The notes beneath the pieces are model-generated. The model did no database searches. It was not told the origin of the DNA and saw only the letters and a program-made list of their open reading frames with translations. The translations under genes were made by a program, and so were the position numbers. 64,000 bases of DNA from an uncultured Bacteroidota bacterium (GTDB lineage: Bacteria > Bacteroidota > Bacteroidia > Bacteroidales > GCA-2748055), in NCBI GenBank assembly GCA_963716765.1, contig CAVQUO010000024.1, positions 1,491-65,490 of the forward strand, read 5' to 3'. Of the stretch, positions 26,190 through 50,628 are shown one piece after another. Within the stretch, counting starts at the first letter, position 1. The number at the start of each line of letters is the position of its first letter.

Positions 26190-26810
26190 CTACTTTGTGC
26201 CGAAGAGTCGGTCGCCTGCATCACCAAGCCCTGGCATGATATAGCCCAGTTCATTGAGTCCTTCATCCATGGCAGCAAGGTAAATGTCAACATCGGGGTG
26301 TTCATCTTCAATCCTGCTAACACCCTCCGGTGCTCCGACAATACAGACCAGTTTAATAAAGCTTGCACCCTCTTTTTTCAGGGTGCTAATGGCCAAACTT
26401 GCGCTGCCCCCTGTGGCCAGCATTGGATCCAGAATCATGACCACAGCCTCGGCAACGTTTCCCGGGAATTTGGCGTAATAATTCATGGGCTTAAGGGTAA
26501 GATGATCCCTGTATAATCCTATGTGTCCCACCTTTGCAGTGGGGATCAGGTTTGTGATGCCATCCACCATTCCTAAACCTGCTCTAAGAACGGGTACCAG
26601 CACGATCTCCCTGGCCAGCTCTTTAGTGAAACATTTTTTCAAGGGTGTTTCAATTTCAATGTCCTGGGTGGGCAGATCGCGGGTGATCTCATAGGCCATC
26701 AGTCCCGCAATCTCATCCAGGTTCTCTCTGAATTCTTTTGTGCCGGTCTCTTTTTTTCGAAGCAGGGTTAACTTGTGCTGGATCAGTGGGTGTTGAACAA
26801 CTGTTAGCAT
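26190..26810 (-). CDS. upp: Uracil phosphoribosyltransferase
   Basis: [22 protein letters not shown], the PRPP loop [12 protein letters not shown] and the C-terminal [17 protein letters not shown]. Confidence 0.95.
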
Positions 26811-26824
26811 GAATAGGCCTTTTT

Positions 26825-28363
26825 TTATTTAAAAACGGAAGGGTCGGTTTCCCGCTCATTTCCTCTGAATGCAGCTACAAACGCCTGGTTATATCCTGAA
26901 GACTTGCATTTGGTTCTGAAGGAGAGCGCATCCTTTAGATTGTTGAATTCACCTACGGTTATCCTGTAGGCCCCCTTATAATAGTATTCCCAGCTTGAGT
27001 AAGCCGATCCGGAAATTGTTACCGATGGCTGACTTTTTGGTTTTGAACTTGAAAGAATCTGAACCCTGAAAACAACCTGGTTGGGATCTGTTGCCTGAAC
27101 CACTGCTTGTTCGGGTTCAGGTACGGATGGAGGTATAGCCACCACTGGGGCAGGTTCTGTTTCCTGCACCTCAGGAATAATTACTGGCAAGGCAGTTTGC
27201 ACTTCTGGCTCAGGTTCTGGCTCAGGTTCAGGCTCAGGTAGTTGTGCCTGCACTTTTTCAGGCTCTTCTTCCTTATCATCGCGTCCGAGAAGGGGAAGGG
27301 CCGTCAGGTTGAATCCGGCCTCAATCTCCAGTTCAGATGCTGCACCAAAGGTAGCCGAGGTAAATCCTGAAGTGATCATGTCCTCCAGTAGAAGCGACAT
27401 ATCCTGGTTTTTAGTGTCAATACCCGCAGATATGAAGGCGCTGTTATTCAGACCCATTTTAAGAACCTCTTCGGAAAGGGTTTCGCCTTCGCCTTCGGAA
27501 GTAAAGAGGGCGATTTTTCTTCCTGGATGAATGGAGAATCCTAATTCATTTTTTTCAGAGTTTACGAAATCACTCAGGTTTTGAGGCTTGTCCCAGCCAT
27601 CTCCATTAAAAAGGCAGACATAGATGTCATATCCACCATATCCCATATGGCCCGATGATGAGAAGAATAGATTGTTGTGCTGGTCCAGGAAGGGATACCA
27701 TTCATGCCCGCTGGTATTAATTTCAGGTCCAAGGGAGACCGGAGTCATCCAGCCACTGGCATTTCTTCTTGAGACAAAAAGATCCAATCCCCCGCTGGAA
27801 GGAGTAAGATCCGTTGCCATAACCATATACTCTCCGTCGGTGGATATTGCCGGATGCATAAACCTGGTGGGCCCTGCTGTGAAGGGCAGCTGCTTGTAAG
27901 TGCTTACCTCACCGTTGATAATGGTGGCCTCGAAAATTTTTTCCGGCATTAGATTGCCGGGAACCTCGATCTTTTTTGTGAAATATACAGTCTGATAATC
28001 CCTGGTATAGGAGGTTCCGGCCGGCGAGTAGGGAAAAGGATCGTTCGTAAATAGTGGTCTGCTGCTTTCCAGTGCAATATATTCCAGGGGAACAAAGTAG
28101 GAGGCTATTTCCCCAAAGTTGATGTGATCGGGAAGCATCTTCTGATGGTATTTAGTATTGGAAAGGAATACAATCCCGTTGAGATAAAATGTCACGTCGA
28201 TGGAGGGCCCCTTGATTTCTAATGCGACAGTATCCAATACCAGGAGCTCTCCAACCCTGATAGAATCATCCTGTGCCCCCGATGCAGATGACATCATTAG
28301 TAGCGCACCAAGCAGGGGGATCAGATATTTGAACCTTGTTATCTTTGGCATGATCTGCTTCAT
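26825..28363 (-). CDS. Exported PD40/TolB-like beta-propeller protein with a Pro/Glu-rich linker and a C-terminal SPOR-like peptidoglycan-binding domain
   Basis: Signal peptide. PD40-like repeats ([11 protein letters not shown]..., [18 protein letters not shown]). A linker with [13 protein letters not shown]-terminal VFRVQILSS...[34 protein letters not shown] is typical SPOR. Confidence 0.7.
27203..27238 (-). repeat. (Pro-Glu)6 coding microsatellite in the linker of the PD40-SPOR protein
   Basis: The plus strand reads TTCTGGCTCAGGTTCTGGCTCAGGTTCAGGCTCAGG, which is (CCn GAr)6 on the coding strand. Confidence 0.85.
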
Positions 28364-28374
28364 TAATCTTGTTT

Positions 28375-29334
28375 TTACCAGTGTCGGTGCTGGGTAAACG
28401 TTGGGCTTCCCTTCCCAATGTTCATGCCCGCTGACACTTCGAAAATAATATTCTCATCGTTCAGGTAACCAACCCTGGGGAATTGAAGGAAAACTCCGGC
28501 ATAAAATTTCGGAAATTGGTATTGAAAGAAGAGTGCAAATATGTCCAGGTCCTTCAAATAGGATCCAATGTAAAAATTATTCAGGTAGACCTTCAGGTAG
28601 GGTACAATTTGATTGAGGGGTTCGCTGATGGTCTCAGAGTCGAGAGTTGTGAGAAGGGATGGCTCAATTACAATGCCCAATCTCTTGCTTATCAAAAACT
28701 TGTATCCAACCTGAAAGTTATACTGACGGCTAAAATCGGAATAATTTAAAGTGCTGTCGCCATTAATATTGGTTCCAAAGAGAGTCGTAATTGATATTCC
28801 GGCAAATACCTGGGGACCATAATAATAGACCCCTATGTCCATGTTTGGCCTGAATTTAGTGCTTAGAGAATCGGAGGGTGACTCGGAACTTGTTTTGGGT
28901 ACTGCAAATACTCCCTTTAATGTGGCTCCAACAGAGATGAAATTTATTTTTTGAGGATCCAGGGAAAAATGATAGGCGCCTGCCAGGGCCAATCCCGTAT
29001 TCCATGAGATATCAAATTGCTCCTGAAAGGCATATGCACCGATACCAAGTTTGGAGAAAAGACCATCGGGTGAGAGTAGGCGAGTATTGAAGTTTATAAT
29101 TTGAGTGTCAGGCTGCTTGGATGCCTTAGTTGTCAGGCTGATGCTTGTGAAATCTTTGCTGCCCGTAAAGGCAGGGTTCAGTACCATAGGGTGATAGATA
29201 GGTATGGAATGAAGTTTAGAAGGAGCGCCCTGTCCGTGAAGCGAAGTGCCCGTTCCAAACACTAAAAAAAGAGCCAGGCTGATTGCTACAGCCCTGCCCC
29301 CCACACAAATGAATTTTCTCCATCCCATAAACAA
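28375..29334 (-). CDS. PorP/SprF-family type IX secretion system outer-membrane protein
   Basis: Signal peptide, then HSIPIYHPMVLNPAFTGSKDFTSISLTTK. Alternating beta-strand pattern throughout and C-terminal ...GKGSPTFTQHRHW. This is the family signature of PorP/SprF. Confidence 0.8.
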   Translation of the reverse strand: MFMGWRKFICVGGRAVAISLALFLVFGTGTSLHGQGAPSKLHSIPIYHPMVLNPAFTGSKDFTSISLTTKASKQPDTQIINFNTRLLSPDGLFSKLGIGAYAFQEQFDISWNTGLALAGAYHFSLDPQKINFISVGATLKGVFAVPKTSSESPSDSLSTKFRPNMDIGVYYYGPQVFAGISITTLFGTNINGDSTLNYSDFSRQYNFQVGYKFLISKRLGIVIEPSLLTTLDSETISEPLNQIVPYLKVYLNNFYIGSYLKDLDIFALFFQYQFPKFYAGVFLQFPRVGYLNDENIIFEVSAGMNIGKGSPTFTQHRHW

Positions 29335-29341
29335 ACCGGGC

Positions 29342-29809
29342 TCAGTAGAGCAGTTCCGAAACTATAAACTGGGACTCCTGGTAAAACTGACCTTCCGTCA
29401 GGAGATTGCCGCTGTAAATCTTACCATCTTTTTCCAGATCAGAATAAGCTTTAATGCTTCCGGAGGCAATCACAATAAAGCGTTCGTGACCTGTGGTGTC
29501 TGCCGATACAGTGTATGTCTGTGACAGCCCTCCACCACTAATTGAACTTACATCAATGATGGTTCCGTTGAGGGTGTTGTAGATGGCCAGGTCGCCCGAA
29601 AACTGATAAAGAGTGGCAATATTTCCGGCGACTGTTATCTGCGGATTAGTATTAATCAGGCTGGTTGCAATTATTTTTTGATCCATTACGTGAGCACTGA
29701 TTTGGACAGTGGGATTGATGGTCATTATAGACTCCTCATCCAGATTCAGGCAACTGTTTAGAAGCAGAGACATGAGAAGCAGGGTGATAAATGTTATCTT
29801 CATTTTCAT
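29342..29809 (-). CDS. Small lipoprotein, unknown function (operon member)
   Basis: 155 aa with lipobox LLLNSCLN and a beta-rich sequence. The start abuts the upstream stop (0-nt spacer). Confidence 0.6.
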   Translation of the reverse strand: MKMKITFITLLLMSLLLNSCLNLDEESIMTINPTVQISAHVMDQKIIATSLINTNPQITVAGNIATLYQFSGDLAIYNTLNGTIIDVSSISGGGLSQTYTVSADTTGHERFIVIASGSIKAYSDLEKDGKIYSGNLLTEGQFYQESQFIVSELLY

Positions 29810-30304
29810 CTACATTTGTATTTTAACCTTTTTTTCCGAATAGTTCTTGTACTGTATCAACAAGCCAAGACATCCGATGTTTTCTTTGATTTCTTCTTCG
29901 GAGGAACCCCTGGCCAGTACGTCTATCTTGATGGTCAGCGATTTTGTGACATCAAATCCAAGCCCCAGCGACTCCAGGTATTTGTCATCTTCATTATCAT
30001 AGAGCACCTGTTGGGTCTGCTGGTCGATCAGAACAAAATGGATGGGGTACATTTTTTTATGTGTGCAGAAAGACAAAATGTAATCTTTCTGTCCGTAAAA
30101 CACCGCGTTCAACTCAAGGGTATCCAGGGGAGACATGCTGGCTGAATGCGATTGACTATATATTTTGTATCCTTTCTGAATGTCATAGCGACAGTCTCCA
30201 TCCATGTGGTGATACTCACAATCCTGAGAAAGGAGGTGAGCAGGTAGTAGCAGAAACAGTAGAGCCAGTAATTGTGTGTATCCTTTGTGTTTCATCTTTT
30301 CCAT
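29810..30304 (-). CDS. Small exported Cys-containing protein, unknown function (operon member)
   Basis: 164 aa with signal peptide ...LLLPAHLLSQD and Cys pairs (DCEYHHMDGDC, FC, GC). 3-nt spacer to the upstream gene. Confidence 0.6.
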   Translation of the reverse strand: MEKMKHKGYTQLLALLFLLLPAHLLSQDCEYHHMDGDCRYDIQKGYKIYSQSHSASMSPLDTLELNAVFYGQKDYILSFCTHKKMYPIHFVLIDQQTQQVLYDNEDDKYLESLGLGFDVTKSLTIKIDVLARGSSEEEIKENIGCLGLLIQYKNYSEKKVKIQM

Positions 30305-30307
30305 TTA

Positions 30308-31234
30308 TCAGTTTGCTTCAACGATACGGGTTCTCAATTCTGTCACCGCTATCTTAAGAGACTCAAAATCCTCTTCCGATAGGCTGGGTGGACTGGAGTC
30401 GGGCGATCCGCCAATGACCAGTTTTTTGGGCTGGTTCTCAGAGCCTTCCGAGGACCTTACAGAGACTTCTCCTTTGGCTGGCTCAATTCTGTTATATATA
30501 GCATGAATTTTTTCCAGATCCCGGATGGTGGATTTTACGCCAGGATCATCACTGTCTACACTCTGGGCAAACATCATGAAGTTATCGATGGTGTATTTCT
30601 GATCGGCCAGGTGTTGAAGTAGCTGGCCAGCTGTTCCGTAGTCATCTATCATGTTGACTGCCAGGAAAAGGCTTTCAGTGAAGGCTCCTGCAGAGAGCAT
30701 TACCACCGTATTGGACCTTTCATTTATTTCGCAGAAAGAGAGGATATTCATGAAAGCGTCGTTGGAGATGACATAGAGCGAGTCCAGGTATTCCACATTT
30801 TCCTTTGCCTTGGTGATCATGGCCTCATCAACGGCCTCATTGATACTGATCTCTTCGGAGAGCGATTTCACGGTCTCCAGGTAATTAAGTGTTTCTTCAT
30901 GCCTGTTGAATAGAGCAGCATAGGCCAGATCGGTCATATAAACTCCAAGAACATAGGTCTTTGATTTGGAGTCAAGATACTGATCCGCCCTTTCCACGGG
31001 ATTTAGAAGAGAGCCATTAAATTTCATATGGGTCATGTCAATGACACCCAACATCTCTGCAGGAGATGGATAGAGATGGTAGATTTGATTGAAGGAAGCA
31101 ATGCCCCCCGAATTTTCTAATTGGTCCAGATCCTGGATCAGAACCGGGGATCCCTTTTTCCCCGATTGACATGCTCCGAACATCATCATCATCATGAAAA
31201 CCAATGGGATGTATTTATTAACTGTATATTTCAT
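30308..31234 (-). CDS. Lipoprotein, unknown function (operon member)
   Basis: 308 aa with lipobox MMMFGACQSG, a predicted helical body and an acidic/Ser-Pro-rich tail. Confidence 0.6.
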   Translation of the reverse strand: MKYTVNKYIPLVFMMMMMFGACQSGKKGSPVLIQDLDQLENSGGIASFNQIYHLYPSPAEMLGVIDMTHMKFNGSLLNPVERADQYLDSKSKTYVLGVYMTDLAYAALFNRHEETLNYLETVKSLSEEISINEAVDEAMITKAKENVEYLDSLYVISNDAFMNILSFCEINERSNTVVMLSAGAFTESLFLAVNMIDDYGTAGQLLQHLADQKYTIDNFMMFAQSVDSDDPGVKSTIRDLEKIHAIYNRIEPAKGEVSVRSSEGSENQPKKLVIGGSPDSSPPSLSEEDFESLKIAVTELRTRIVEAN

Positions 31235-31283
31235 TTTCTATTATTATTGAATTCGACATTCAATTTATCACAAATATACCACT

Positions 31284-34200
31284 TTAAGCTCCTGCTGATC
31301 TTTTTCTTCTGAGATTTCCGAAGTATTCAAGTCCTTTTTTCAATAGCCTGAATCTCAAGAATACGGAAAGGATCAGGGTCATGATCCAGATGATTAAAAT
31401 GTTAAAATAGAGAGTTGGAATATAAATATTCCCAAAAATCTTAACCGAGGCATAAAAATGGGAACGACCATTTCTTTTGGTTGGATAGGCATATACAGGA
31501 TCCAGCTTTCTTAGCAGGATGCCCTCTTTCTTTATTATTTTGTGAAGGTCATTTCGGTTGAGTACCAGATCCGCAAGCTGATCATTATATGTGCCCCTCT
31601 TTTCCTGTAAAAAAGCCTCAGATCCCCCTGCCTCCTTTAGTAATGAATCGATCAGCAGATCTTCTTCCAGTATCAGGCGGTCGCGGTGCAAGCGAAGTGC
31701 AGACTGGTATTTTTGCAACCAGCGAATGAGTTCATCGCCCTTCGATTTGTAAAACTGATCAATGCTAATTCTTTCAGGGTAAGGATAGGGTGTGGTAAGG
31801 CGGATGGAGGCGAGTGCATTTTTTATGGTGTACAGACTGGCCTTCAGTTCCTCTTCGCTGCCTTGCTCCTGAAATGTTATGGCGTCGTCAAGCTCCTGAG
31901 TAAGAGCCGGTATGAGGAACTGCATGTCATAGGTAATATTGCTCTCCAGTCTTTCTGTTTCAAAGAGTGGTTTCTGGTAGGCATTGTTTGCAAACTGGTT
32001 TACGACCAGGGCTTCATATGCCCAGCGACTGGCCATAAAATCTCCGGACAAGGGGACCACTATGGCTGATGCAAATTTGTAATGAAGCTTGTCGAATTTC
32101 ACAATTACCCCGGCCAGAAGAATCTGGGGGACCAGAAGAAAAGGGACAATGACATAAATGGCAACCACCGATTTCAAGCCATCGGAGATAAGAAGGCCAA
32201 ACATATTTGCAAAACAGGCAGTTGAAAACAGGATCAGCCAGTAAGAAAGTGTCATTCCCTTGATCTCCATAATCAGGTTGCCAATCACTACAAACATCAA
32301 CATCTGGATACCCGACAGGATAAAAAGCAGGGAAATCTTAGAGAGCAGGTAGGCGGTGCGACTAAGGTGAAGGAATGATTCCCTTTTCAGAATCCGACGG
32401 TCACGGTGAATCTCTTCCGCAGCGATAATCAGTCCCAGGAAAAGTGCCACGATCACACTCATAAACAGGTATGCAGGAAGGTTCTCATTCTGACTGAAGA
32501 GATAATGATGAGGGTTGCTTTCATCCCCGGAAACGTACTTGGAAAAGAATCCAAGTATCAGGGCCAGAAGGGGGGCCACCAGGAGTGCAATGGACATGAA
32601 CTGGCGGTCGGCCAGTTTGGAAAGCAGGTTTCTTTTGAAGAAAATCAGGAATTGCCTGAATGCTCCCGGAATCCTGAATTTATTAGCAGGGATAGGACAT
32701 TTTTCCGAAGAGAACTCCATTTTGGCTTCAATCTTCTGCTGATAGAGGGAATACCACGAATCGGGATCGGATTTTCTTTTGGCTGTAAATGCTCCTGATT
32801 CATCGACCTCCTTTGCCTCTATGATTTTGAGGATATCATCCGGATTCACGTGACCGCAAGTATGGCATTCACTCTCAGAGGCATCTACTCGACCTGCCAG
32901 TTTTTTGAAATAGGTGATTCCGTCAATGGGATTTCCCGAATAGACCGGGTAGCCACCTCTGTCGAGTACGATCAGGTGATCAAATTGCTTGAAAAGCTCT
33001 GATGAGGGTTGATGAATGGTTGATAGTACCAGTTTCCCCTTTAGGGCCTGTTCTTTCAGAAGGGAAATCACATTCTCGGAATCGGTCGAGGAAAGGCCGG
33101 AGGTGGGCTCATCTACAAAAAGCAGGTGGGGTTCACGAATCAGTTCAAGGGCAATGTTTAGCCTTTTTCGCTGACCGCCGCTGATGTATTTATTTAGTGG
33201 TGATCCCACCTTCAGGTCCCTGGCATTAAAAAGATCCAGCTCCTTAAGAAGATTTTTGACTGCCAAATCGATCTCCTCCTTGCTGTGTCCGTCCAGGCAT
33301 AAGCGGGCATTAAACAGGAGATTCTGGTATACGGTCAGCTCTTCGATCAAGAGGTCATCCTGGGGAATATATCCAATCATTCCTTCCAGCTCCCTGGTTC
33401 GGTATTGCAGATTGAGACCATTGATGTAAATACCTCCGGAAACAGGCTTTAGTCCACCATTTAGTAACTTCAAAAGTGTCGATTTGCCGGCTCCGCTTCC
33501 CCCCATGATACCTACCAGCTGTCCGGATCTGCCCTGAAAACTGAATTTTCTGATCCCGTGGGGTGAATTCTTAAAATGGTACTCTATGTCCCTGGCGCAA
33601 AAGTTGACTGGCTGATTGTTTGTGTCCAGTATGTATCCTGATACTATGTCAGAATAGTATATGGGAGAGAAGCCTTCTCCTCTGATTGCTCCTCCCCGCG
33701 GAAAGATATAGACATGCCTTGGGAAAATATATCTTTCATTGCTTTCCAACCTGGCCCTACCCACATATTGAAACAGGTAGATTTCTGCCCGCGCAATTCT
33801 GAGGATCAGGATTTGTCCGGGGAGACCATCTTTTTGAAGATGCTTCACTTCTCCCTCCATGAATTCCGGATCATCGCTTACAAGGAGCAACCGTTCCTTG
33901 TTGGGTACCTGGTAGAACTTGTCTCCAATGAAAGCGGAACAATTATCATATTCATCCGGAGTAATAAGCAAACCATCGGCAATGGTACGAACCGCGTCGG
34001 AAATGGTATCGGAAAACTCAAAACCCTGAGTTGCAGTATCAGAGAAAAATTTTTTAAAAGTGATCAGGCTAAGGAGGATCATGAATCGCTGGGTGATGTT
34101 CAATTCATCCACAACCTGGTTGCAAATAACCAGAAGTTTAACTGACCACGAAGAAATTTTTTTTTCTCTTTGCCCAGTTCCCATTATCTGGTACTCACTT

Positions 34201-34367
34201 GCATACTGGTCAAAGATGAGTAAGTATTTGTTGGCCAAAGATTGACTGAATTGCTGAGTGAGATAGGATTCAACGAAATTCCTGGCAAGGAGATGCATGG
34301 CTCCCCTGTTGATGCTTACCATAATGGCAAACAATCGCATCAGGGAATTTAGCATGGACTCATTCAT
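31284..34367 (-). CDS. Single-polypeptide ABC transporter (ATPase + ABC-2/ABCG-like permease) with a 290-aa N-terminal extension and a long C-terminal extension ending in an extra TM helix
   Basis: Intact 1027 aa. Walker A GIMGGSGAGKSTLL at about residue 290, signature ISGGQRKRLNIALEL, Walker B LLFVDEPTSGLSS, H-loop STIHQPS, about 6 TM segments, then about 200 aa more and a terminal TM. Confidence 0.85.
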   Translation of the reverse strand: MNESMLNSLMRLFAIMVSINRGAMHLLARNFVESYLTQQFSQSLANKYLLIFDQYASEYQIMGTGQREKKISSWSVKLLVICNQVVDELNITQRFMILLSLITFKKFFSDTATQGFEFSDTISDAVRTIADGLLITPDEYDNCSAFIGDKFYQVPNKERLLLVSDDPEFMEGEVKHLQKDGLPGQILILRIARAEIYLFQYVGRARLESNERYIFPRHVYIFPRGGAIRGEGFSPIYYSDIVSGYILDTNNQPVNFCARDIEYHFKNSPHGIRKFSFQGRSGQLVGIMGGSGAGKSTLLKLLNGGLKPVSGGIYINGLNLQYRTRELEGMIGYIPQDDLLIEELTVYQNLLFNARLCLDGHSKEEIDLAVKNLLKELDLFNARDLKVGSPLNKYISGGQRKRLNIALELIREPHLLFVDEPTSGLSSTDSENVISLLKEQALKGKLVLSTIHQPSSELFKQFDHLIVLDRGGYPVYSGNPIDGITYFKKLAGRVDASESECHTCGHVNPDDILKIIEAKEVDESGAFTAKRKSDPDSWYSLYQQKIEAKMEFSSEKCPIPANKFRIPGAFRQFLIFFKRNLLSKLADRQFMSIALLVAPLLALILGFFSKYVSGDESNPHHYLFSQNENLPAYLFMSVIVALFLGLIIAAEEIHRDRRILKRESFLHLSRTAYLLSKISLLFILSGIQMLMFVVIGNLIMEIKGMTLSYWLILFSTACFANMFGLLISDGLKSVVAIYVIVPFLLVPQILLAGVIVKFDKLHYKFASAIVVPLSGDFMASRWAYEALVVNQFANNAYQKPLFETERLESNITYDMQFLIPALTQELDDAITFQEQGSEEELKASLYTIKNALASIRLTTPYPYPERISIDQFYKSKGDELIRWLQKYQSALRLHRDRLILEEDLLIDSLLKEAGGSEAFLQEKRGTYNDQLADLVLNRNDLHKIIKKEGILLRKLDPVYAYPTKRNGRSHFYASVKIFGNIYIPTLYFNILIIWIMTLILSVFLRFRLLKKGLEYFGNLRRKRSAGA

Positions 34368-35469
34368 GCGGAAAAACCATTTTCATCACTCCACTCCCTT
34401 TGTCTGTTTTCTCAAAAATCAGATGTCCCCCGTGGGCCTCCATGATTATCTGGGCAACAGACAATCCGATCCCCATAGTCAGGTTCAGGGAAATATCCTT
34501 TGTTGAAAACTGATCAGAAAGTAGTTCAAAAAGCGCGTCAGAATAGTTTTTCCCCTGGTCCTCTACTCGGCATTCCACAATTCCGTTTTGTTTTGTGGAA
34601 GTGATAAGAATCTCTCCTTGATTGCTGGTATGTTCCTTTGCGAAACGAATCATACAAACCAGACAACTTACAAGCAGTCCGGAATCACCTTCAATATAAA
34701 GATCGTTCGGGGAGTTATCTTTTTTTAAGCTGATATTTAACTCCTTAAGCTCTTCGCTGGTCTCGATAGCACCAAACTGAATCACCTGATTGATGGAGAC
34801 CTGCTGTTCGTTCAGAGAAAATTCGGAAGATTTTAAGGTGGAAATCTGGCGGGCCAGCAGAGAGAACTGTTCCAGCTTAAACACAGATTGCCCGAGGATA
34901 TTCACCACGTCGGAAAGTTCATCTCCTTCAATTTTGGATTTCAGCATATGTAAGGTCCCCATGATCCGGTTCAAGGGCTCACTGATTTCATTGCTAATGG
35001 AAGAGATGATTTCGGATTTCAAAACGTCCATATTAAGCAATTCGGCATTCACGCTTTCCAGTTGCTTCAGGATTTGCCGGTTTTTTATCCTCAGGTGGTA
35101 GGTTTCAAGGGAACCTTTAATGGAAGCCCTGACTTCATCTGCATCCATCGGTTTCTTGATGTAGCCGTGAACCCGGCCCACATTTACTGCTTCAATTACA
35201 GTTTCTGTATCGGTAAAGGCGGTTAAAAGGTAGCTGCGGATATCGGGGTATTTTTCAGCGACAATTTCAAGCAGTTCGGTGCCGCTCATCACCGGCATTC
35301 GCTGATCTGAGATCAATATCTGTACCTCTCGCTCCTCGAGAATCTTCAATACCTCAGCGGGGAATTCAGTGAGGATTAAATTATAGTCATTCCTGAAAGT
35401 TGCTTCAAACAGTTTCAGGTTCATCGGCAGGTCATCTACATAAAGCACTGTAGGCTTATCCTGGACCAT
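34360..35469 (-). CDS. Hybrid receiver + histidine-kinase-like protein with degenerate H-box and N-box (putative pseudokinase)
   Basis: The REC domain is intact (LYVDDLPMNL, ILISDQRMPVMSG, YIKKP). The H-box position reads KSEIISSISNEISEPLNRIMG (Asn where His is expected). The N-box reads CMIRFAKEHT. G2 is MGIGLSVAQIIMEAHGG. The stop overlaps the ABC start by 8 nt. Confidence 0.75.
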   Translation of the reverse strand: MVQDKPTVLYVDDLPMNLKLFEATFRNDYNLILTEFPAEVLKILEEREVQILISDQRMPVMSGTELLEIVAEKYPDIRSYLLTAFTDTETVIEAVNVGRVHGYIKKPMDADEVRASIKGSLETYHLRIKNRQILKQLESVNAELLNMDVLKSEIISSISNEISEPLNRIMGTLHMLKSKIEGDELSDVVNILGQSVFKLEQFSLLARQISTLKSSEFSLNEQQVSINQVIQFGAIETSEELKELNISLKKDNSPNDLYIEGDSGLLVSCLVCMIRFAKEHTSNQGEILITSTKQNGIVECRVEDQGKNYSDALFELLSDQFSTKDISLNLTMGIGLSVAQIIMEAHGGHLIFEKTDKGSGVMKMVFPHE

Positions 35470-35618
35470 AATTTAAAATTATAAATAGGTTGAATGGCTA
35501 TTTCAAAGATAGTAGATTTTCATATACACTTTGTATTTGCAAATCTGTCAATATGTTAAAAACTGTCTCAGGAATTTCATATCTTGCTTATCAATGTTTT
35601 CACTTAAACTAAATAATT

Positions 35619-35999
35619 ATGAAAAAATTAGTTGCTTCGCTTTTTGTTTCCGGGATTCTTTTGGTCGCATTTCAGTCCTTTATTCTAAAACCCGGTCCAG
35701 GTCCTGATGCTCCCGACGAAGTGAAGGAGATTCTGAAAAACTCCTGCTATGGATGTCATTCCAATGAATCCTCCAACAAAAAAAGTGTGGGTGCCCTGAA
35801 TTTTGACGAATTTGATGGTTACAAGGTGACAAAGAAGATTTCCAAGCTGGACGCGATCCATGAAGTGATTACCGAAGGTAAGATGCCGCCGGAAAAATTT
35901 CTGAAAGGAAATCCCGATAAAGCCCTGAGCGATGATCAGGGAACACTTGTAGGAAATTGGGCTTTAGAGGAGTCAGAAAAACTTATGAAAGAGAATTGA
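35619..35999 (+). CDS. Haem-binding-domain (CxxCH) exported protein
   Basis: 126 aa with a signal peptide, NSCYGCHSNESSNKK and GKMPPEKF, the pattern of small haem-binding domain proteins. Confidence 0.65.
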   Translation: MKKLVASLFVSGILLVAFQSFILKPGPGPDAPDEVKEILKNSCYGCHSNESSNKKSVGALNFDEFDGYKVTKKISKLDAIHEVITEGKMPPEKFLKGNPDKALSDDQGTLVGNWALEESEKLMKEN

Positions 36000-36490
36000 T
36001 GCGCAAAGGTGTTAAAATCACCGGGCTGATGCTTGTCGGGGCCCTTATCGTGGCCCAGTTTATACAGCCAGAGAAGAATCTTCATGAGGGCCCACAGGAT
36101 AATGATTTAATGAACACTCTTGATGTTCCTGAGCTGGTGGCCGACCTGTTGATAAACTCTTGTTATGATTGTCATTCCAATAACACCCGCTACCCATGGT
36201 ACAGTAAAATTTCGCCAGTATCATGGTATCTTCACAAACATGTGGAAGAGGCAAAGGAGGCCGTAAATTTTGATGAATTCGGACTGCTTGCTCAGCGCAA
36301 AATGATTGGAACCCTCTCAGATATTTGCGAGCTTATCGAATCGGGTTCCATGCCACTCGTGAGCTACAGGATCATTCACAGGGATGCAAACCTTGATGAG
36401 GAGGCCATGAGGACTATCTGCGACTGGACCCAGGCCGAGGCAGAGAACTTGATGAGGGCTGGTGCTAATCCGGTGGGTGAAAAACCCTGA
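35999..36490 (+). CDS. Haem-binding-domain (CxxCH) membrane-anchored protein
   Basis: The ATG overlaps the upstream stop (TGATG). TM anchor, then INSCYDCHSNNTRYPWYSKISPVSWYLHKHVEEAKEAVNFDEF and GSMPL. Confidence 0.7.
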   Translation: MRKGVKITGLMLVGALIVAQFIQPEKNLHEGPQDNDLMNTLDVPELVADLLINSCYDCHSNNTRYPWYSKISPVSWYLHKHVEEAKEAVNFDEFGLLAQRKMIGTLSDICELIESGSMPLVSYRIIHRDANLDEEAMRTICDWTQAEAENLMRAGANPVGEKP

Positions 36491-36689: not shown

Positions 36690-37250
36690 ATGAAACATAT
36701 TAAAAAACTTGCATTATTGATGATCGTAGTACTTGGAATGAGCTCATGCGGTCTGTTTAACGTAGATGTCGATTCCACTCTCAGTGGCGTTGTGGATGTT
36801 TATGTGGAGGAAGATATGGCCAAGGGAACAGCCGATGATTGGTATCCATGTGGAGGAGTGGCACTTATTGATGCTCAAGAAGATGAGGATGTTCAGAAGT
36901 ATTCCGACAATATTGATGAGATTAGCGTCAACGATATTGTTGCCACAGTTGAATATGTGAGCACTGGAGATATATTACTCCAGGAGAACGCAGTTTTTTA
37001 TATTACACATCAAGAAGACTCTGTTGCCTGGACCCAACCAGAAGAATGGCCCCTAAAGGAAGGTTCCACTTTCAATTTTGATAATCTGGGTAGCAGTTAT
37101 GATGATGCTTCTGCAATTATTCTGAATGCAGCTTCAAATGAAGATGCCAGCGTAATCACTGTGGGAATGGTTGGGAAAAGCTCAAAGGCTGGAGTTAACT
37201 TTAAAATTAAGATTGAATTCGGCACTGTTTTCACAGCGAGCATCATATAA
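36690..37250 (+). CDS. Lipoprotein, unknown function
   Basis: 186 aa with lipobox VLGMSSCGLF and an acidic sequence. No motif recognised. Confidence 0.55.
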   Translation: MKHIKKLALLMIVVLGMSSCGLFNVDVDSTLSGVVDVYVEEDMAKGTADDWYPCGGVALIDAQEDEDVQKYSDNIDEISVNDIVATVEYVSTGDILLQENAVFYITHQEDSVAWTQPEEWPLKEGSTFNFDNLGSSYDDASAIILNAASNEDASVITVGMVGKSSKAGVNFKIKIEFGTVFTASII

Positions 37251-37389: not shown

Positions 37390-39853
37390 ATGTTTAGCCC
37401 CAACAAAGTATTATCAGGGAGTGTCATTTTTCTATGGCTCTCCCTTCTTTTTTCCTGTAGCCATACAAAGCCAGCACGACTTCTTCCGGGAGGGAGATTT
37501 TAATGCTGACTGGAAATTTCAGATGGGTGATATTCCGGATGGAGCCCATCCGGATCTGGATGATTCGGGGTGGAAGACCGGTTCATTTGCCCCACGATTG
37601 GAGTGTCCTGGATTATGAGTTCAGGATTCTCTTCACCAGGGTCCCTTTTACAAAGACCTCCCCGGAGGGAGCGATGTGGGCTATCTGAGAGATGGGGTGG
37701 CCTGGTATCGAAAGGAGTTTGAGACACCCGCAAAGCTTGGATAAAAAACGGGTTATTCTTGATTTTGACGGGGTCCAGACCCAGATGGAGCTCTGGGTGA
37801 ATGGTGAGCTAAAATTGGGGGAGCATGTATATGGCTATACTCCCTTTCAAGTTTGATATCACGCCGCATCCCTCAATGGGGAAGGAGAGACCAATATCAT
37901 AGCTCTTAAGAACCATCAATGCAGGCGAAAATTCAAGATGGTTTGCTGGCGCTGGCATCTACAGGCCTGTTCATATTTCCATCTTAGACCCGGTATCCAT
38001 CGCCCCATGGGGTGTGCAGATCACCACTCCGGATATATCCGGGGAATCGGCAAGTGTGAATTTCAGGTAAGGATTGATAAGTTGCCGGAGGAGGATGCGC
38101 TTTTAGAGTGCGAGGCAGAGGTTATTTCACCTGAGGGAGAAAGCATCAGAACTGGATCCAGTGGACGCTAAAAGCGGATGGAGGGTCATCGCCCGTCCTG
38201 AATCTCTCAGGCAGGATTAGAATTCCACAGCTCTGGAGTATTGATCAGCCCAATCTCTACCAGGCCATTGTTACCTCTTTACTGCAATGGAAAGGAGACA
38301 GACCGTTATGAGACCACATTCGGTATCCGGTCCATTGCTTACAGTGCAGAGGATGGATTCCTGTTGAACGGAGAGGAAATTCTGATGAAAGGAGCCTGCA
38401 TGCATCATGACAATGGTTTGCTTGGTGCTGCTGCCTTTCCGGATGCTGAGTACCGCAGGGTAAAGAGGATGAAGGAGAATGGCTACAATGCCATCCGCAC
38501 CAGCCACAATCCTCCATCCAGAGACTTTCTGAATGCCTGTGACGAGCTTGGAATGCTGGTGATCGACGAAGCCTTCGATCAATGGAAGAAACCCAAACGC
38601 CCCAATGATTACTCCAATTATTTCGAGGAGTGGCATAACAGGGATGTACAGGCCATGGTTTACCGCGACCGGAACCATCCCAGCGTGGTCATGTGGAGTC
38701 TTTGGAAACGAGGTCCAGGAGCGGGCCGATCCCGAGGGAGTTGAAATAGGGAAGCAGGCTTATTGAAGCCATCAGGGAGGTGGATGATACACGACCTGTG
38801 ACGCAGGCCATATGTGCTTTCTGGGACAATCCCGGAAAGGAGTGGGATGATACTGAAGGGGCATTTGAAAACAGGATATCGGGGGCTACAATTATCAGTA
38901 CATGGAATATGAAGCGGATCATGAGAAGTTTCCGGAACGCATCATGTACGGATCAGAAACCTTTCCACAATATGCCTGGGAGAACTGGGAGATGGTAAAA
39001 AGACATCCTTATGTAATTGGAGATTTTGTCTGGACCGGGATGGATTATATCGGTGAGTCGGGGATTGGTCATGTTGATATCGTAATAAGGAGGCGGAAAT
39101 GAGCTTCCTGAAACCATGGCCCTGGTACATCTCCTGGTGTGGGGATATCGATATCCTGGGAAACAAGAAGCCTCAATCCTATTACCGCGATGTGCTTTGG
39201 GGGGAGAGCAAGCTGGAAATCATGGTGTCCACACCCGTTCCGGAAGGGAAAATGCCCGATATGCTACTGGGGCTGGTATGACGAATTGAACAGCTGGAAC
39301 TGGGAAGGCCATGAAGGCAAAGCCATGAAAGGTAAAGGTATATTCCTCTTTCCCGGAGGTGAAGCTGGAACTGAATGGAGTGCCGTCGGAAGTAAGATAA
39401 TGACGCCGGAGGATCAGTATATAGCCGAATTTGAGGTGATGTATGAGCCCGGTGAGCTGAAGGCCCTTGGAGTAGACGGGGATAAGAACAGAGACTGTTT
39501 CACTCTTCACGGCAAAAGAGGCAAGTCAGCTGATCCTTAGCCCCGAGAAGGAAGTGTTTTCTGCCCACACAAATACACTTGTTTTTATTCCGGTAGAGGC
39601 CCGGGATGAGCAGGGAGTACTGGCGCCAAATGATCAATCGGAAGTAAGGGTGGTCGTCGCAGGAGAGGGAGAACTGCTGGCAGCAGGGAATGCAAATCCT
39701 CTTCATGAAGGAAGTTTTACCGATGGTGTATTTAAATTGTTTCGGGGCAAGGGAATGATCATTGTTAGGTCAACCGGCACCCAGGGTGAGATTATTGTAG
39801 AGGCTACATCCAAAACCATGTCTTCGGAAATGGTTATTTTACGCCCACTTTAA
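37390..39853 (+). pseudogene. Glycoside hydrolase family 2 (beta-galactosidase-like), heavily degraded: at least 10 frame changes or stops by my tracing
   Basis: GH2 blocks are scattered over all three plus frames. They are a lipoprotein signal at 37390, WKFQMGD...DDSGWKT, VHLPHDWSV, GVAWYRKEF, ILDFDGVQT, IRSIAYSAEDGFLLNGEEILMKGACMHHDNG...IRTSHNPPS...DEAFDQW...HPSVVMWS, VIGDFVWTGMDYIGESG and the C-terminal VVVAGEGELLAAGNANP. Confidence 0.85.
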
Positions 39854-42093: not shown

Positions 42094-43458
42094 ATAAAGT
42101 GATTAAAAGGATATTATGGTTCTTGTTGTTTGCTGTTCTTGTTGCCGTTACATGGTTTGCCTGGCCCAGGCTGCCCATTATCACGGCTTTGCAGCAAAAG
42201 GGATGTGTTCCAGCGTTTTCCTGGCAGGAAAAACTCCTGAAAGGGTCGAAGCTGAGGACCTCTCCTTTTTCCCCATCAGCCTGGCAAAGTGTACAATAGA
42301 TTATGAGGAGAAATCGGTTACCGCAAGGGTTCTGGGCCTGGCAAAGCGGAAGGCGGTATTCAGGGAAGGACTTGGGTGCTGTTATGGTACTGGATAAACC
42401 CGAGGAGGAGCTGATGGCTGAATCATATAAAATTCCCGATCCCGGTTATAGTCAGGATACCATTCCCTGGCCCTTGGGCGATGTGATTTCTCACTTCAAT
42501 GCCTGAAGGGGTGGATTATGAAAAACTGGAAAGCATCCTGAAAGAAGCCATTGATGAGCCAGGGAGTGAGCCGTTCAAAAAAACCTTGGGAGTTGCAGTG
42601 GTATATGAGAATCAGCTGATCGGAGAGCATTACCTGGATGGCTATGATGCATGGACCAAATTTCATGGCTGGTCCATGACAAAAACGGTTACCGGAGCCA
42701 TGGCCGGGATTACTGGTGGAAGAGGGAAGGATGGATATGAACGCCAAAGGGGTATTCCGGATTGGGCAGGTGATGAGCGTAAAAATATCACCGTTGAAGA
42801 TATCATTTCATATGAGCAGCGGACTGAAATGGGTGGAGAACTATTTTACCATCTCTGATGCCACGGTGATGCTGATGCAAAGTGACGATATGTTCTCTTC
42901 GGTTACAGGCTGTGAGCTGGAGCATGAACCCGGAAGCTTCTGGAACTACTCTTCGGGCGATGCCAACTTGCTTTCCGGCCTGCTCAGAATTGCTATCGGA
43001 GATGATGATGAGTACCATGGTTATCCTATACACAGGTCTGTTTCATCGCATCGGGATGCTTGAATACAATGGTGGAAACCGATGCCAGTGGACTGTTTGT
43101 TGCTTCTTCCTTCAGTTATGGTTCGACCCGGGACTGGGCCCGCTTTGGTTGCTCTTCCTGAATCATGGAATCTTTGAAGGTGATACGGTGCTTAGTCCCG
43201 AATGGGTGGAGTATATGAAAGCTCCTGCTCCGGCATCGGATGGCTACTATGCAGGCACCTTCTGGTTGAAGGAACCCGAATGAGGAGAATGCCCTGACGG
43301 ATGTCCCGGAGGATATTTTCTTTGCTGACGGTTTCCTGGGACAGCGGGTTTATATCATACCCTCAAAAAATCTGGTGGTGGTTCGTATGGGCTACAGCCT
43401 GTCCAATTTCAGTATGAACGATTTTCTCAGGGATATCATAGCGACCCTTCCTGTGTAG
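42090..43458 (+). pseudogene. Beta-lactamase-family (class C-related) serine hydrolase, fragmented by at least 5 frameshifts
   Basis: Fragments lie in three frames. They are an N-terminal anchor MNKVIKRILWFLLF, AAKGMCSSVFLAG, the SxxK motif in FHGWSMTKTVTGAMAG, WNYSSGDANLLSGLL and the C-terminal FFADGFLGQRVYIIPSKNLVVVRMGY. Confidence 0.75.
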
Positions 43459-49611: not shown

Positions 49612-50628
49612 ATGAATTCAAAGTTGCTATCAGGAAGGTTTTTTGTACAGGTAATGGTCCTTGGCGTGTTGTTATTAACAGCCTCTGCCCGAGGATTACA
49701 AGCGCAGGAAAAAACCGAGGGAACCATGACATTTACTGTCAGAACCGTTACCGTGAATGGAAACTTTTCACCCAGACATGTACTGGCAATATGGGTGGAG
49801 GATGCAAATGGCTTTGTCCTTACAAGGAAGTTAAGAGCTGAAAAGAGAAAACAATACCTCTACACCTGGAATGTCAAATCGGGGGGCAATGTGACAGATG
49901 CAACTACGGGAGCCACTCTTTCCAGTCATCAGACCCATACGGTGATATGGGATTGTAAAGACAAAGACGGAGCCCTTGTTCCGGATGGAGAATACAAGGT
50001 ATATGTTGAATTTACCGAGGCACATGTTCAGGGACCATTGAGAATGGTAAGCTTCACAAAGGGCCCCGAAACAGTTTCTATCTCACCGGCCGATGAAACA
50101 AACTTCAAGGATATGGCTTTACAGTTTGAGCCCACAGTAACAGTCACTGCCGGATTTACCTTCGTCGCAGAAGAATTGCTTGTTAATTTCACCTCCACCT
50201 CCACTGGAGCAACTTCCTATGACTGGGATTTTGGGGATGGAAATACAAGCCAGGAGGAGAACCCCTCGCACAGCTATGCCTCTGCGGGAACTTATTCCGT
50301 GAGCCTGAAAGCAACAGCAGGTTCAAACAGTGCCACTGAAGCCCAGGAGATCACTGTTTCCAGCACTGTTGGAACAGGAGGAACCTTACTTGATACACCG
50401 CAGATCTATCCCAATCCTACAAGTGGAGTTTTCACAGTCTCTCTGGATAAGGATGCGGGTATCTCTTCCATCAAGGTATTTGCTAGCAACGGTAGCCTGG
50501 TATATTCAAGGGAGATAGTTGGTAAGGATTCACACCAGGTCAACATAGAAGCTTCTGAAAGTGGCACTTACATTCTGAAGGTTGAAAATCAGCATGGGTT
50601 CTATAGCCAAAAGATAGTTATGGAGTAG
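49612..50628 (+). CDS. DUF2271-like + PKD domain protein with a T9SS C-terminal sorting domain
   Basis: FSPRHVLAIWVEDANGFVLTRKL..., PKD (FTSTSTGATSYDWDFGDGNTSQEENPSHSYASAGTYSVSL) and CTD (IYPNPTSGVFTVSL...GTYILKVEN). Confidence 0.75.
   Translation: MNSKLLSGRFFVQVMVLGVLLLTASARGLQAQEKTEGTMTFTVRTVTVNGNFSPRHVLAIWVEDANGFVLTRKLRAEKRKQYLYTWNVKSGGNVTDATTGATLSSHQTHTVIWDCKDKDGALVPDGEYKVYVEFTEAHVQGPLRMVSFTKGPETVSISPADETNFKDMALQFEPTVTVTAGFTFVAEELLVNFTSTSTGATSYDWDFGDGNTSQEENPSHSYASAGTYSVSLKATAGSNSATEAQEITVSSTVGTGGTLLDTPQIYPNPTSGVFTVSLDKDAGISSIKVFASNGSLVYSREIVGKDSHQVNIEASESGTYILKVENQHGFYSQKIVME

Follow-up and report, generated by a model that had tools for sequence, protein, structure and literature searches.

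Seven minus-strand genes, labeled here g1–g7 and running head to tail from position 35469 to 26825 of a 64,000-nucleotide (nt) stretch of contig CAVQUO010000024.1 (assembly GCA_963716765.1; an uncultured Bacteroidales bacterium), form a block that is followed downstream by upp and ppk2; the whole stretch is referred to below as the window. Comparison with related loci indicates that the block is made up of a conserved unit, g1–g4, whose tightest core is g2, a gene for an ATP-binding cassette (ABC) transporter, together with g3 and g4, and of a separable module, g5–g7. Because at least five arrangements bring g3 and g4 next to genes for PorP, PorE-like proteins, or type-B cargo, a functional link of g3–g4 to cell-wall-anchored type IX surface complexes is likely. 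The combined reading proposed here—that is, g1–g4 as a regulated exporter system that services, or is tied via g3/g4 to, static cell-wall-anchored outer-membrane complexes of the g5–g7 kind—is put forward as an evenly balanced proposition. The anatomy and modularity of the block are much more certain than this functional coupling, and the whole case rests on comparative genomics and predicted structures.

Organization and conservation of the block

According to the listing of open reading frames (ORFs), the seven ORFs are intact, all on the minus strand, and located exactly where a first-pass annotation of this DNA had placed them, with inter-gene spacers from g1 to g7 of −8, 49, 3, 0, 7, and 11 nt. 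The upp gene (26810..26190) begins 14 nt past g7, and ppk2 follows another 55 nt on. As that annotation had also reported, the stop of g1 overlaps the start of the ABC gene: within CATGAATGA, the g1 frame reads CAT GAA TGA (...His-Glu-stop) and the g2 frame reads ATG AAT GA. (Met-Asn-Glu), and an overlap of −8 or −4 nt is retained in most genome loci. Each of the seven proteins has counterparts of 45–86% identity, the number of species-representative genomes concerned ranging from 14 to above 40, and this conservation across species-level genomes identifies the seven ORFs as real genes. Their products, with lengths in amino acids (aa), are as follows.

g1, 34360..35469, minus strand: 369 aa; receiver domain (aa 8–117) followed by a DHp-like/CA-like predicted pseudokinase
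g2, 31284..34367, minus strand: 1027 aa; ABC-2 half-transporter of ABCG type, with the nucleotide-binding domain (NBD) first; start overlaps the g1 stop by 8 nt
g3, 30308..31234, minus strand: 308-aa lipoprotein; lipobox Cys22, then QSGKKG; predicted to be all-helical
g4, 29810..30304, minus strand: 164-aa Sec-exported protein with four conserved Cys residues
g5, 29342..29809, minus strand: 155-aa lipoprotein, lipobox Cys19; in the "cargo" position ahead of the PorP-like gene
g6, 28375..29334, minus strand: 319 aa, TTG start; PorP/SprF-family outer-membrane beta-barrel
g7, 26825..28363, minus strand: 512 aa, Sec-exported, PorE-like; PD40 propeller at about 117–294, linker at about 365–420, SPOR-like end at about 428–512

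A conserved core and a separable module

A scan for the g3 family with one genome per species yielded 43 loci, all from uncultured Bacteroidales/Bacteroidia and two Saccharicrinis metagenome-assembled genomes (MAGs); a metagenome scan added 80 loci, and all loci were annotated with profiles built from these sequences. The order g1–g2–g3–g4 is found in nearly all of the 43 genome loci, and the core is present in nearly all of the approximately 130 loci overall. In metagenome contigs, this order, or the ABC–g3–g4 triad with the receiver gene divergent, persists to 30–45% identity. [quoted passage not shown]

The first-pass annotation had raised the possibility that the block recurs as a whole across Bacteroidota. 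This holds within one Bacteroidales clade (clade A), where the complete order g1–g7–upp–ppk2 occurs in 17 of the 43 species-representative loci and in four metagenome contigs, but elsewhere g1–g4 also occur alone, and one contig has g5–g7 apart from them. In approximately 19 loci with sufficient downstream sequence, g1–g4 are followed by oligopeptidase B/MutS2, an opposite-strand flavoprotein gene, or other genes. A neighbor-joining tree of g3 places all loci bearing g5–g7 in a single clade, in which two nested sublineages have lost the adjacency, and the sister clade and basal branches are without it. Furthermore, two loci (L010 and L040) have unrelated genes, for a histidine kinase and for a 496-aa protein of NAD-binding type, lodged between g4 and g5 and between g5 and g6, and a further locus (L135), reached via a g5 relative, carries g5, PorP, a PD40/SPOR-like gene, and upp in succession without g1–g4, with a paralogous g3′–ABC′ pair divergent beside it. 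Tight spacing is no evidence of shared function in this block, since upp and ppk2, at 14 and 55 nt, are equally close and syntenic.

The g3′–ABC′ pair itself encodes a g3 paralogue of approximately 276–283 aa followed by an ABC paralogue of approximately 1020–1040 aa that is 42% identical to g2, without g4 or a receiver gene. It was found in L019 (1568–5474), L073 (1766–5558), L051 (2414–6410), L052, and L135 (2–1171). In clade-A relatives, it often sits upstream of g1 in divergent orientation; the window has no copy. Within the window, no paralogues of the seven genes were found except for a receiver domain at 1946–2299 on the plus strand, which shares 36% identity with the g1 receiver over 118 residues. 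Two contigs of one MAG (MFD03804.bin.1.39; L041 and L042) carry a sister-clade core followed by oligopeptidase B as well as a fragmented clade-A block with g5–g7–upp, reflecting either two paralogous systems per genome or a mixed bin.

Recurrent linkage to type IX anchor genes

In Flavobacterium johnsoniae, five or six operons encode type-B cargo, PorP(SprF)-like, and PorE-like proteins, regarded as making up static surface complexes anchored to peptidoglycan (PMC9143113, PMC12618676). Genes of one or more of these kinds recur beside g3 and g4 in five arrangements, the first being the gene order of the window itself in clade A. In the second, found in Marinilabiliaceae, PorP, a PorE-like (OmpA) gene, and the ABC gene follow each other in one operon, the ABC protein having 980–996 aa and the same N-terminal extension, and the divergent side encodes a PKD-repeat/CHU_C cargo, the receiver protein, g3, g4, and a hybrid histidine kinase; the carriers are Saccharicrinis carchari, two other large genomes, Saccharicrinis MAGs, and Labilibacter sediminis. 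In the third, from a Salinivirgaceae MAG, g4′–g3–g4 adjoin a CHU_C cargo gene, a 346-aa gene, and a PorE-like gene. In the fourth, from L095 and L036, the succession of g4′, the response regulator gene, the ABC gene, g3, and g4 has close upstream neighbors in a CHU_C cargo gene, a PorP gene (247 bits), and a GldN-like gene. The fifth is a third paralogous cassette, g3″–g4″ followed by a PorE-like gene (TPR-PD40-OmpA, approximately 790 aa) with gaps of 8–142 nt and no ABC gene, present in L020 (1–2899), L079 (3–2423), L101 (2–2697), and L105 (2596–6385); this cassette is the most direct genomic tie of the g3 and g4 families to PorE-like proteins. Overall, PorP, PorE-like, or type-B-cargo genes accompany five of approximately 13 distinguishable g3–g4 contexts.

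The GldN-like gene of L095 (3008–4213, minus strand) encodes a 401-aa protein with a GldN-domain match of 45 bits and lies between the CHU_C cargo/PorP pair and g4′–RR–ABC–g3–g4, RR being the response regulator gene. A further g3–g4 pair, in L037 (9959–15601), is without an ABC or g1-type gene and sits between two clusters, one with ECF-sigma, FecR, TonB-receptor, DUF4249, and MFS genes, and the other with a CheB-CheR-PAS fusion and a histidine kinase.

The organism of the window uses type IX secretion, as indicated by a 338-aa protein encoded at 49612–50628 on the plus strand, which contains DUF2271/FlgD_ig, PKD, and Por_Secre_tail (type-A type IX CTD) domains. A search of the window for type-B cargo with the Saccharicrinis cargo returned only this PKD/type-A-CTD protein at 49.6–50.6 kb.

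The receiver-pseudokinase and the ABC exporter

Pfam matches in g1 comprise Response_reg (62 bits), HATPase_c (31.2 bits; cut-off of 26.4), and, below its cut-off of 26.9, HisKA (20 bits). The receiver residues D12, D13, D55, T83, and K105 are intact and kept in at least 90% of orthologues in a 27-sequence alignment. The H-box reads S-N160-E-I-S-E-P-L, with Asn160 where the phospho-acceptor His is expected, and the same alignment contains no conserved His at this column, the displayed orthologues having N, K, Q, or R. In the protein of the window, the N-box Asn is gone (CMIRFA) and G1 is degenerate (DQGKN), with G2 (GIGL) retained. Because the receiver is intact, the H-box His is absent, and the N- and G1-boxes are degenerate, g1 is read as a response regulator with a pseudokinase output, in agreement with the initial description of an intact receiver joined to a degenerate kinase.

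For g2, the Pfam matches to ABC_tran (104.5 bits), ABC2_membrane (61), and ABC2_membrane_7 (32.5) are all above cut-off, the ATPase motifs are intact (Walker A at 289, signature at 396, Walker B at 416, and H-loop at 451), and there are six transmembrane (TM) segments, with the membrane helices very strongly conserved in a 30-orthologue alignment. In a sequence search of PDB, residues 274–761, covering the NBD and the transmembrane domain (TMD), align with residues 103–577 of ABCG1 (7r8c) at an E-value of 4e-40. These matches place g2 in the ABCG/ABC-2 (type V) class of ABC exporters. Its best NCBIfam model, the pigment precursor permease TIGR00955, gives 255 bits against a cut-off of 736, and g2 is thus not a member of that family. 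The likeness to the Gld ABC, Lol, and Lpt systems that had first been suggested does not survive at any score threshold: the NCBIfam models for GldA, LolD, and LptB reach 82 against 403, 85 against 308, and 83 against 240 bits, and neither Pfam nor NCBIfam detects GldF/GldG, LolC/E, LptF/G, or TolQRA homologues in the block.

Extra domains had been noted in this 1027-aa protein from the outset. At the N-terminus, a helical domain and a putative FHA-like domain are predicted; the supposed C-terminal extension is read as a periplasmic loop and not a tail. The three additional regions are as follows.

g2 aa 1–150, 33918..34367, minus strand: predicted cytosolic seven-helix N-domain, with no detectable relatives
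g2 aa 160–245, 33633..33890, minus strand: predicted cytosolic FHA-like beta-sandwich
g2 about aa 760–992, 31413..32087 (aa 761–985), minus strand: predicted periplasmic insertion of about 225–233 residues, from TM5 (with re-entrant helices) to TM6

An AlphaFold2 (AF2) model of residues 1–262 (pLDDT 86, pTM 0.84) shows the seven-helix domain and the beta-sandwich. When this model was searched against PDB with Foldseek, the matches covered the beta domain only and none the helical part; the top 20 were all FHA domains, as were nearly all of the first 50 (including Rad53 FHA1, MEK1, CEP170, KIF1A, and DgcB), these being weak fold matches (E-values of 0.03–0.3, probability up to 1.0, and target TM-scores of 0.4–0.5). 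Pfam detects no FHA domain in g2. In our reading of the orthologue consensus, conserved G203-K/R, N210-G, and P-R-H218 occur in an order unlike the canonical GR...SxxH...NG.

With respect to the insertion, hydropathy and the positive-inside rule place the last TM segment at 986–1004, followed by RRKR, and the alignments of ABCG1 and ABCG2 to g2 end at query positions 756–761. Because TM6 lies after the extra region and the ABCG alignments stop at approximately 760, this region is best read as an insertion in the last external loop, that is, as a giant form of the ABCG EL3 loop. Its length and several of its motifs are conserved across 30 orthologues.

Two orphan periplasmic families

The first-pass annotation had described two lipoproteins and one Cys-containing secreted protein of no recognizable family, and this description is borne out by the conserved lipoboxes (Cys22 of g3 and Cys19 of g5), by the four conserved Cys residues of g4, and by Pfam and NCBIfam searches, which found no family for g3, g4, or g5. 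PDB profile searches of g3 and g4 and a Foldseek search of g3 likewise uncovered no well-characterized unrelated family to which these small proteins might belong.

In g3, Cys22 is followed by Q-S-G-K-K, without an acidic surface-export signal. Alignments reveal the invariant motifs PSPxE, G.Y..DLAY, and ESLY, and 328 homologues were found with no Pfam family among them. The AF2 model (pLDDT 75) contains 12 helices, for which Foldseek found no fold relative in PDB below an E-value of 0.7, and a PDB profile search for sequence relatives among solved structures gave only chance-level matches. The g3 protein is the founding member of an unnamed family. The Cys residues of g4 (C29, C38, C80, and C145, in the alignment numbering of the first sequence) are conserved in alignments that take in Marinilabiliales and relatives at 30% identity, and its profile search against PDB also gave chance-level matches only.

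At an E-value of 0.1, neither Pfam nor NCBIfam detects the C-terminal CHU_C/TIGR04131 domain of type-B cargo in g3, g4, or g5; the same search does pick up CHU_C in the cargo that L045 and L095 encode. Source annotations of the proteins are limited to "ATP-binding cassette domain-containing protein," "hypothetical protein," and "Lipoprotein."

Several candidate assignments were rejected. Fold matches of g3 to PorX (E-value of approximately 2, probability 0.1) were disregarded, as was a weak 24-residue match to Endotoxin_C2 (E-value of 0.005). Weak family matches to BppU_N, RsgA, and Trypan_PARP were also set aside, the last of these corresponding to the PEPEPE linker of g7.

The outer-membrane and cell-wall module

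The start of mature g5, C-(L/I/V)-x-(L/I)-E-E-E-P, is conserved in 18 orthologues, with E-E-E-P at +4 to +7 and thus an acidic run at +4 to +6. The Bacteroidota lipoprotein export signal is acidic at +2 to +5 after Cys. Judged from its sequence, g5 is possibly surface-exposed. The family is a narrow orphan one, with 19 relatives at an E-value of 1e-3 or below among 1.84 billion representative proteins. A BamI match (E-value of 0.03) involved the signal peptide only and was rejected, and matches to giant repeat proteins (DUF5801/RTX, Cyt-b5 repeats, Ig_7, and Big_13) were heterogeneous and judged compositional.

The identification of g6 as a PorP/SprF protein, made in the first-pass annotation, is upheld by PF11751 (80.9 bits; cut-off of 22.3); the stricter TIGR03519 gives 73.3 bits, below its cut-off of 90.55. 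In SprF, a Cys-x-Cys motif in the periplasmic C-terminal tail bonds to GldK and the gliding track (PMC12635249). The C-terminus of g6, ...GKGSPTFTQHRHW, contains no Cys, so the SprF-type Cys-x-Cys tail is absent.

For g7, Pfam detects PD40 (27 bits), which was found in 12 of 14 orthologues. The PorE model NF052230 gives 97.5 bits (E-value of 6e-28) against a cut-off of 600, with only the propeller part aligned (model positions 229–403), and the CHU_0125 model gives 75 bits, far below cut-off. No TPR or OmpA domain was found with Pfam, and no lipobox Cys by sequence inspection. On these scores, g7 is to be described as PorE-like and not as PorE. The SPOR end is the weakest part of the initial description of g7 as a propeller with a SPOR end, of which the PD40 part stands: Pfam SPOR (PF05036) gives 14.5 bits (E-value of 0.047), below its 21-bit cut-off, and at an E-value of 0.01 has no match in the set of 14 orthologues. 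A profile of the orthologous C-termini does match the SPOR domain of CwlC (1x60) at an E-value of 0.0015, the sole sensible PDB match, and the C-terminus of g7 is likely SPOR-like. The g6–g7 pair is accordingly best regarded as a variant of a known module, in which the PorE-like protein has a SPOR-like end, no lipobox, and no TPR match. The linker of g7 (window 27100–27270) is a Pro/Glu-rich (PEPEPE...) low-complexity segment of variable length, and orthologous g7 proteins range from 507 to 584 aa.

Proposed mechanism and alternative explanations

In the proposed mechanism, unit 1 (g1–g4) would be an envelope system centered on a homodimeric ABCG-type exporter with cytosolic helical and FHA-like domains and a periplasmic loop. 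A separate histidine kinase—candidates near the core are the hybrid histidine kinase encoded in the Marinilabiliaceae operons and the histidine kinase inserted in L010—would phosphorylate the receiver of g1, and phosphorylated, translationally coupled g1 would gate ABC activity via the N-domain of g2. On the periplasmic side, the g2 loop would cooperate with the periplasm-facing lipoprotein g3 and with g4, which would be disulfide-bonded, the ABC protein either passing a lipid-like or amphipathic envelope molecule to g3/g4 or moving g3/g4 mechanically. Unit 2 (g5–g7) would be a variant of the type-B cargo/PorP(SprF)-like carrier/PorE-like anchor operon, with the small lipoprotein g5 in the cargo position and a SPOR-like peptidoglycan-binding domain instead of an OmpA_C-like one. 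Finally, g2 may contact g3/g4, and g3/g4 the PorE-like protein; via the connection of g3/g4 to PorE-like anchors, the system would help a static type-IX-type surface complex to be assembled, anchored, or displayed in a regulated way. Because g3–g4 neighbor PorE, PorP, and cargo genes in several independent orders, unit 1 most likely services or physically joins such anchor complexes.

A number of points weigh against this reading. Most sister-clade and distant (L117–L128) loci are without a PorP/PorE gene within 10 kb, and hence the core can work without an adjacent anchor module; in clade A, the two units may be neighbors through inheritance alone, like upp/ppk2. The estimate that five of approximately 13 contexts lie far above chance, which presupposes only a handful of PorE-type operons per genome, is an informal one that uses rough gene densities from F. 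johnsoniae. PorE-like (TPR-PD40-OmpA) proteins include general outer-membrane-integrity proteins such as CHU_0125, and the partner may therefore not be type-IX-specific. The g5 protein is without a type-B CTD, and a tandem-duplicated relative of it (283 aa, 31% identity) occurs in an unrelated context (L133, 8001–15049), among genes for polysaccharide synthesis/export (epimerases, Wza-like, Wzc-like) and two type-A-CTD cargo genes (peptidase M6, cadherin-like), showing the g5 fold to be independent of the ABC set. As for the predicted structures, the FHA-like call leans on weak Foldseek E-values, with canonical phosphothreonine-binding motifs not identified, and the model of g3 has yielded no structural relative hinting at lipid binding.

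Several of these points would be expected if g1–g4 were instead a self-contained, two-component-regulated exporter of a lipid, pigment, toxic, or other amphipathic compound, with g3/g4 as its accessories and the PorP/PorE module as an inherited neighbor in one clade. Thus, the core occurs alone in approximately 19 genome loci and in most distant metagenome loci, g5–g7 are found without g1–g4, upp follows g7 as tightly as g5 follows g4, and, in sequence, g2 comes closest to ABCG/PDR exporters of lipids and drugs. However, at least five gene orders put g3–g4, with or without the ABC gene, beside PorE-like, PorP, or CHU_C-cargo genes, among them the single PorP–PorE–ABC operon of cultured Marinilabiliaceae and the direct g3–g4–PorE-like cassettes, and such recurrence is hard to square with chance if PorE-like operons are few per genome (PMC12618676). 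This explanation is accordingly judged fairly unlikely.

The reading of g1–g4 as a system tied to anchor complexes can also be extended. In the extended form, ABC–g3–g4 would be an ATP-driven, phosphorelay-gated inner-membrane partner of PorE-like, wall-tethered outer-membrane complexes, and hence a second energized trans-envelope link besides the proton-driven GldLM/PorLM, with a logic like that of Tol-Pal; it would control assembly, anchoring, or release of type-B proteins and, in the lineage of the window, have a septal role via the SPOR-like domain. Taken as a whole, this extension is speculative and unlikely.

Still less probable is an alternative in which g2 acts as a mechanotransmitter for inside-out signaling, as do FtsEX, MacB/LolCDE, and LapD, with phosphorylation and ATP hydrolysis moving the loop, shifting g3/g4, and in turn altering a wall tether or surface-protein retention. 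The large conserved periplasmic loop and two dedicated periplasmic partners are in keeping with it, as are the heavy signaling input (the receiver-pseudokinase, the hybrid kinase of Marinilabiliaceae, the histidine kinase of L010, and the CheB/CheR and histidine kinase genes of L037) and the ABC-less g3–g4–PorE-like cassettes, from which g3/g4 would seem to work on the anchor instead of carrying a transported substrate. On the other hand, to our knowledge, mechanotransmitting ABC transporters all have the MacB/FtsX fold and none the ABCG fold, which is that of g2; the membrane helices of g2 are very strongly conserved, as expected of a translocation path; and the set encodes no periplasmic enzyme such as a protease or hydrolase.

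That the block is one machine of seven obligatory subunits, or belongs to one of the systems Gld ABC, Lol, Lpt, and Tol-Pal, might be supposed from its head-to-tail genes with spacers of −8 to 49 nt, its entire synteny in 17 genome loci, and parts that span the inner membrane, periplasm, cell wall, and outer membrane, but this supposition is very improbable and is largely refuted by synteny, since the block splits into separable units and takes up unrelated genes in L010 and L040, the GldA/LolD/LptB models give 82–85 bits against cut-offs of 240–403 with no cognate permease or TolQRA homologues, and g6 is without the track-coupling CxC motif of SprF.

Control regions and neighboring genes

The sole sizeable non-coding stretch, and the only gap above 49 nt in the gene run, lies 5′ of g1.

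Region upstream of g1, 35470..35618, minus strand: 149-nt intergenic region, shared with divergent haem-binding-domain genes; candidate promoter region

Within this gap, TATCTTTG at 35511..35504 fits, weakly and by reading of the sequence, the pattern TAnnTTTG, which we take to be the Bacteroidota −7 promoter motif. A scan for sigma-70-type consensus sequences found TTGAAA-17-TATAAT at 35506..35478, a weak candidate, given that total matches equal the expectation from shuffled sequence. Indeed, in the scan of the block, neither promoter-like nor terminator-like consensus matches were commoner than in shuffled sequence; the terminator-like sites all lie within coding sequence and none is intergenic. 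The block is free of RNA families, tRNAs, and repeats according to Rfam and tRNA scans. The two units, g1–g4 and g5–g7, are probably co-transcribed.

Divergent from g1 on the plus strand, genes at 35619–35999, 35957–36490, and 36690–37250 encode two paralogous Haem_bd proteins (PF14376, CxxCH) and a 186-aa lipoprotein. This trio is syntenic 5′ of the core in many clade-A loci and lies downstream of the paralogous ABC′ gene in L019; a redox or haem connection to the g1–g4 system is possible.

The first-pass annotation had placed the block inside the only long stretch of the window with no frame disruptions, and disrupted surroundings are indeed found in two neighboring genes, at approximately 37.9–39.85 and 42.1–43.3 kb: a GH2-type glycosidase gene (window 37900–39853) and a beta-lactamase-family gene (42116–43283) are each broken into several overlapping frames. 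In related loci, the GH2 gene is intact at 819 aa and the beta-lactamase-family gene at approximately 455 aa. The broken frames could be either genuine pseudogenes or indel errors of long-read assembly; comparable breakage occurs within the ABC gene in related MAG loci (L009, L011, and L042).

Significance and comparison with known systems

These results bear on the assembly, anchoring, and regulation of type-B type IX substrates and of the PorP/PorE-like proteins that carry them, and on the role of ABC transporters (GldAFG) in type IX secretion and gliding. They define a conserved set of Bacteroidota genes, encoding a receiver-pseudokinase, an ABCG exporter with an FHA-like domain and a giant periplasmic loop, and two periplasmic families without known relatives, and reveal its repeated, independent physical linkage to PorP, PorE-like, and CHU_C-cargo genes. 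They also add two unnamed families (g3 and g4), neither of which could be assigned to a known family or matched in sequence to a solved structure, as well as a PorE-like variant with a SPOR-type end. The cultured S. carchari (locus L047) and L. sediminis (L050), with an adjacent PKD/CHU_C protein of 1450 aa, make the link testable by deletion.

The g5–g7 module most closely resembles the type-B cargo/PorP/PorE operons, such as Fjoh_3952-3951-3950 of F. johnsoniae and PG1035-PorP-PorE of Porphyromonas gingivalis, in that the g6 barrel is followed by g7 with PD40 and a peptidoglycan-binding end and preceded by a small exported protein; both this gene order and its static, wall-anchored logic have been described (PMC9143113, PMC12618676). 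The Saccharicrinis, Labilibacter, and L095 loci carry the canonical form with CHU_C cargo. Unlike the cargo of these operons, g5 has a lipoprotein signal and no type-B CTD, and g7 differs from PorE in having no TPR match, no lipobox, a SPOR-like domain in place of an OmpA_C-like one, and a score of 97 against 600 bits. The type-B/PorP/PorE literature searched (PMC9143113, PMC12618676) mentions neither an ABC transporter nor a receiver protein nor proteins of the g3/g4 type.

The NBD and TMD of g2 have their best PDB matches (E-values of 1e-31 to 1e-45) among ABCG/PDR exporters—ABCG1, ABCG2, ABCG5/8, Pdr5, and Cdr1—which, like g2, have the NBD ahead of the TMD and, after TM5, a re-entrant segment containing the motif ...W.YEAL..N.F.... 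The g2 protein is set apart from them by an insertion of approximately 180–225 residues in the last external loop, a 260-residue N-terminal extension, a bacterial context with a lipoprotein partner, and a TIGR00955 score of 255 against 736 bits.

Tol-Pal, with its TolQRA motor, TolB PD40 propeller, and OmpA_C-type anchor Pal, offers a further parallel, since there, too, a propeller and a peptidoglycan-binding module, which bind the outer membrane to the cell wall, are coupled genomically to an energy-using inner-membrane complex. A SPOR-type domain would indicate septal peptidoglycan, where Tol-Pal also acts. Unlike in Tol-Pal, the energy source would be an ATP-driven ABC protein and not proton-driven TolQR, TolA is absent, g7 fuses propeller and anchor, and no sequence membership was found.

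[quoted passage not shown] However, g2 is a single fused ABCG-type polypeptide, the GldA model gives 82 against 403 bits, GldF and GldG are missing, and g3 and g4 are unrelated to Gld proteins.

A regulatory parallel is offered by Rv1747-PknF of Mycobacterium tuberculosis, in which phosphorylation by PknF, a kinase encoded upstream, controls the FHA-ABC exporter Rv1747 (PMC3138270); the control of the ABC protein proposed for g1 would be analogous. Both systems have an NBD-first ABC-2/ABCG half-transporter with cytosolic N-terminal FHA-type domain(s), putative in the case of g2, and a signaling gene immediately upstream. In contrast to Rv1747-PknF, g1 is a two-component receiver with a putative pseudokinase and not a Ser/Thr kinase, and g2 has a single divergent FHA-like domain after a seven-helix domain, a giant periplasmic loop, and two dedicated periplasmic partners, in another phylum and envelope type.

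Overall, g1–g4 combine a regulatory logic like that of Rv1747/PknF with a genomic neighborhood like that of GldAFG, and are a member of neither. As the first-pass annotation had supposed, no described system matching the combination was found: the component classes are familiar, whereas the conserved way in which they are combined, the giant periplasmic loop, the pair of orphan families, and the recurring association with type IX anchor modules appear to be undescribed.

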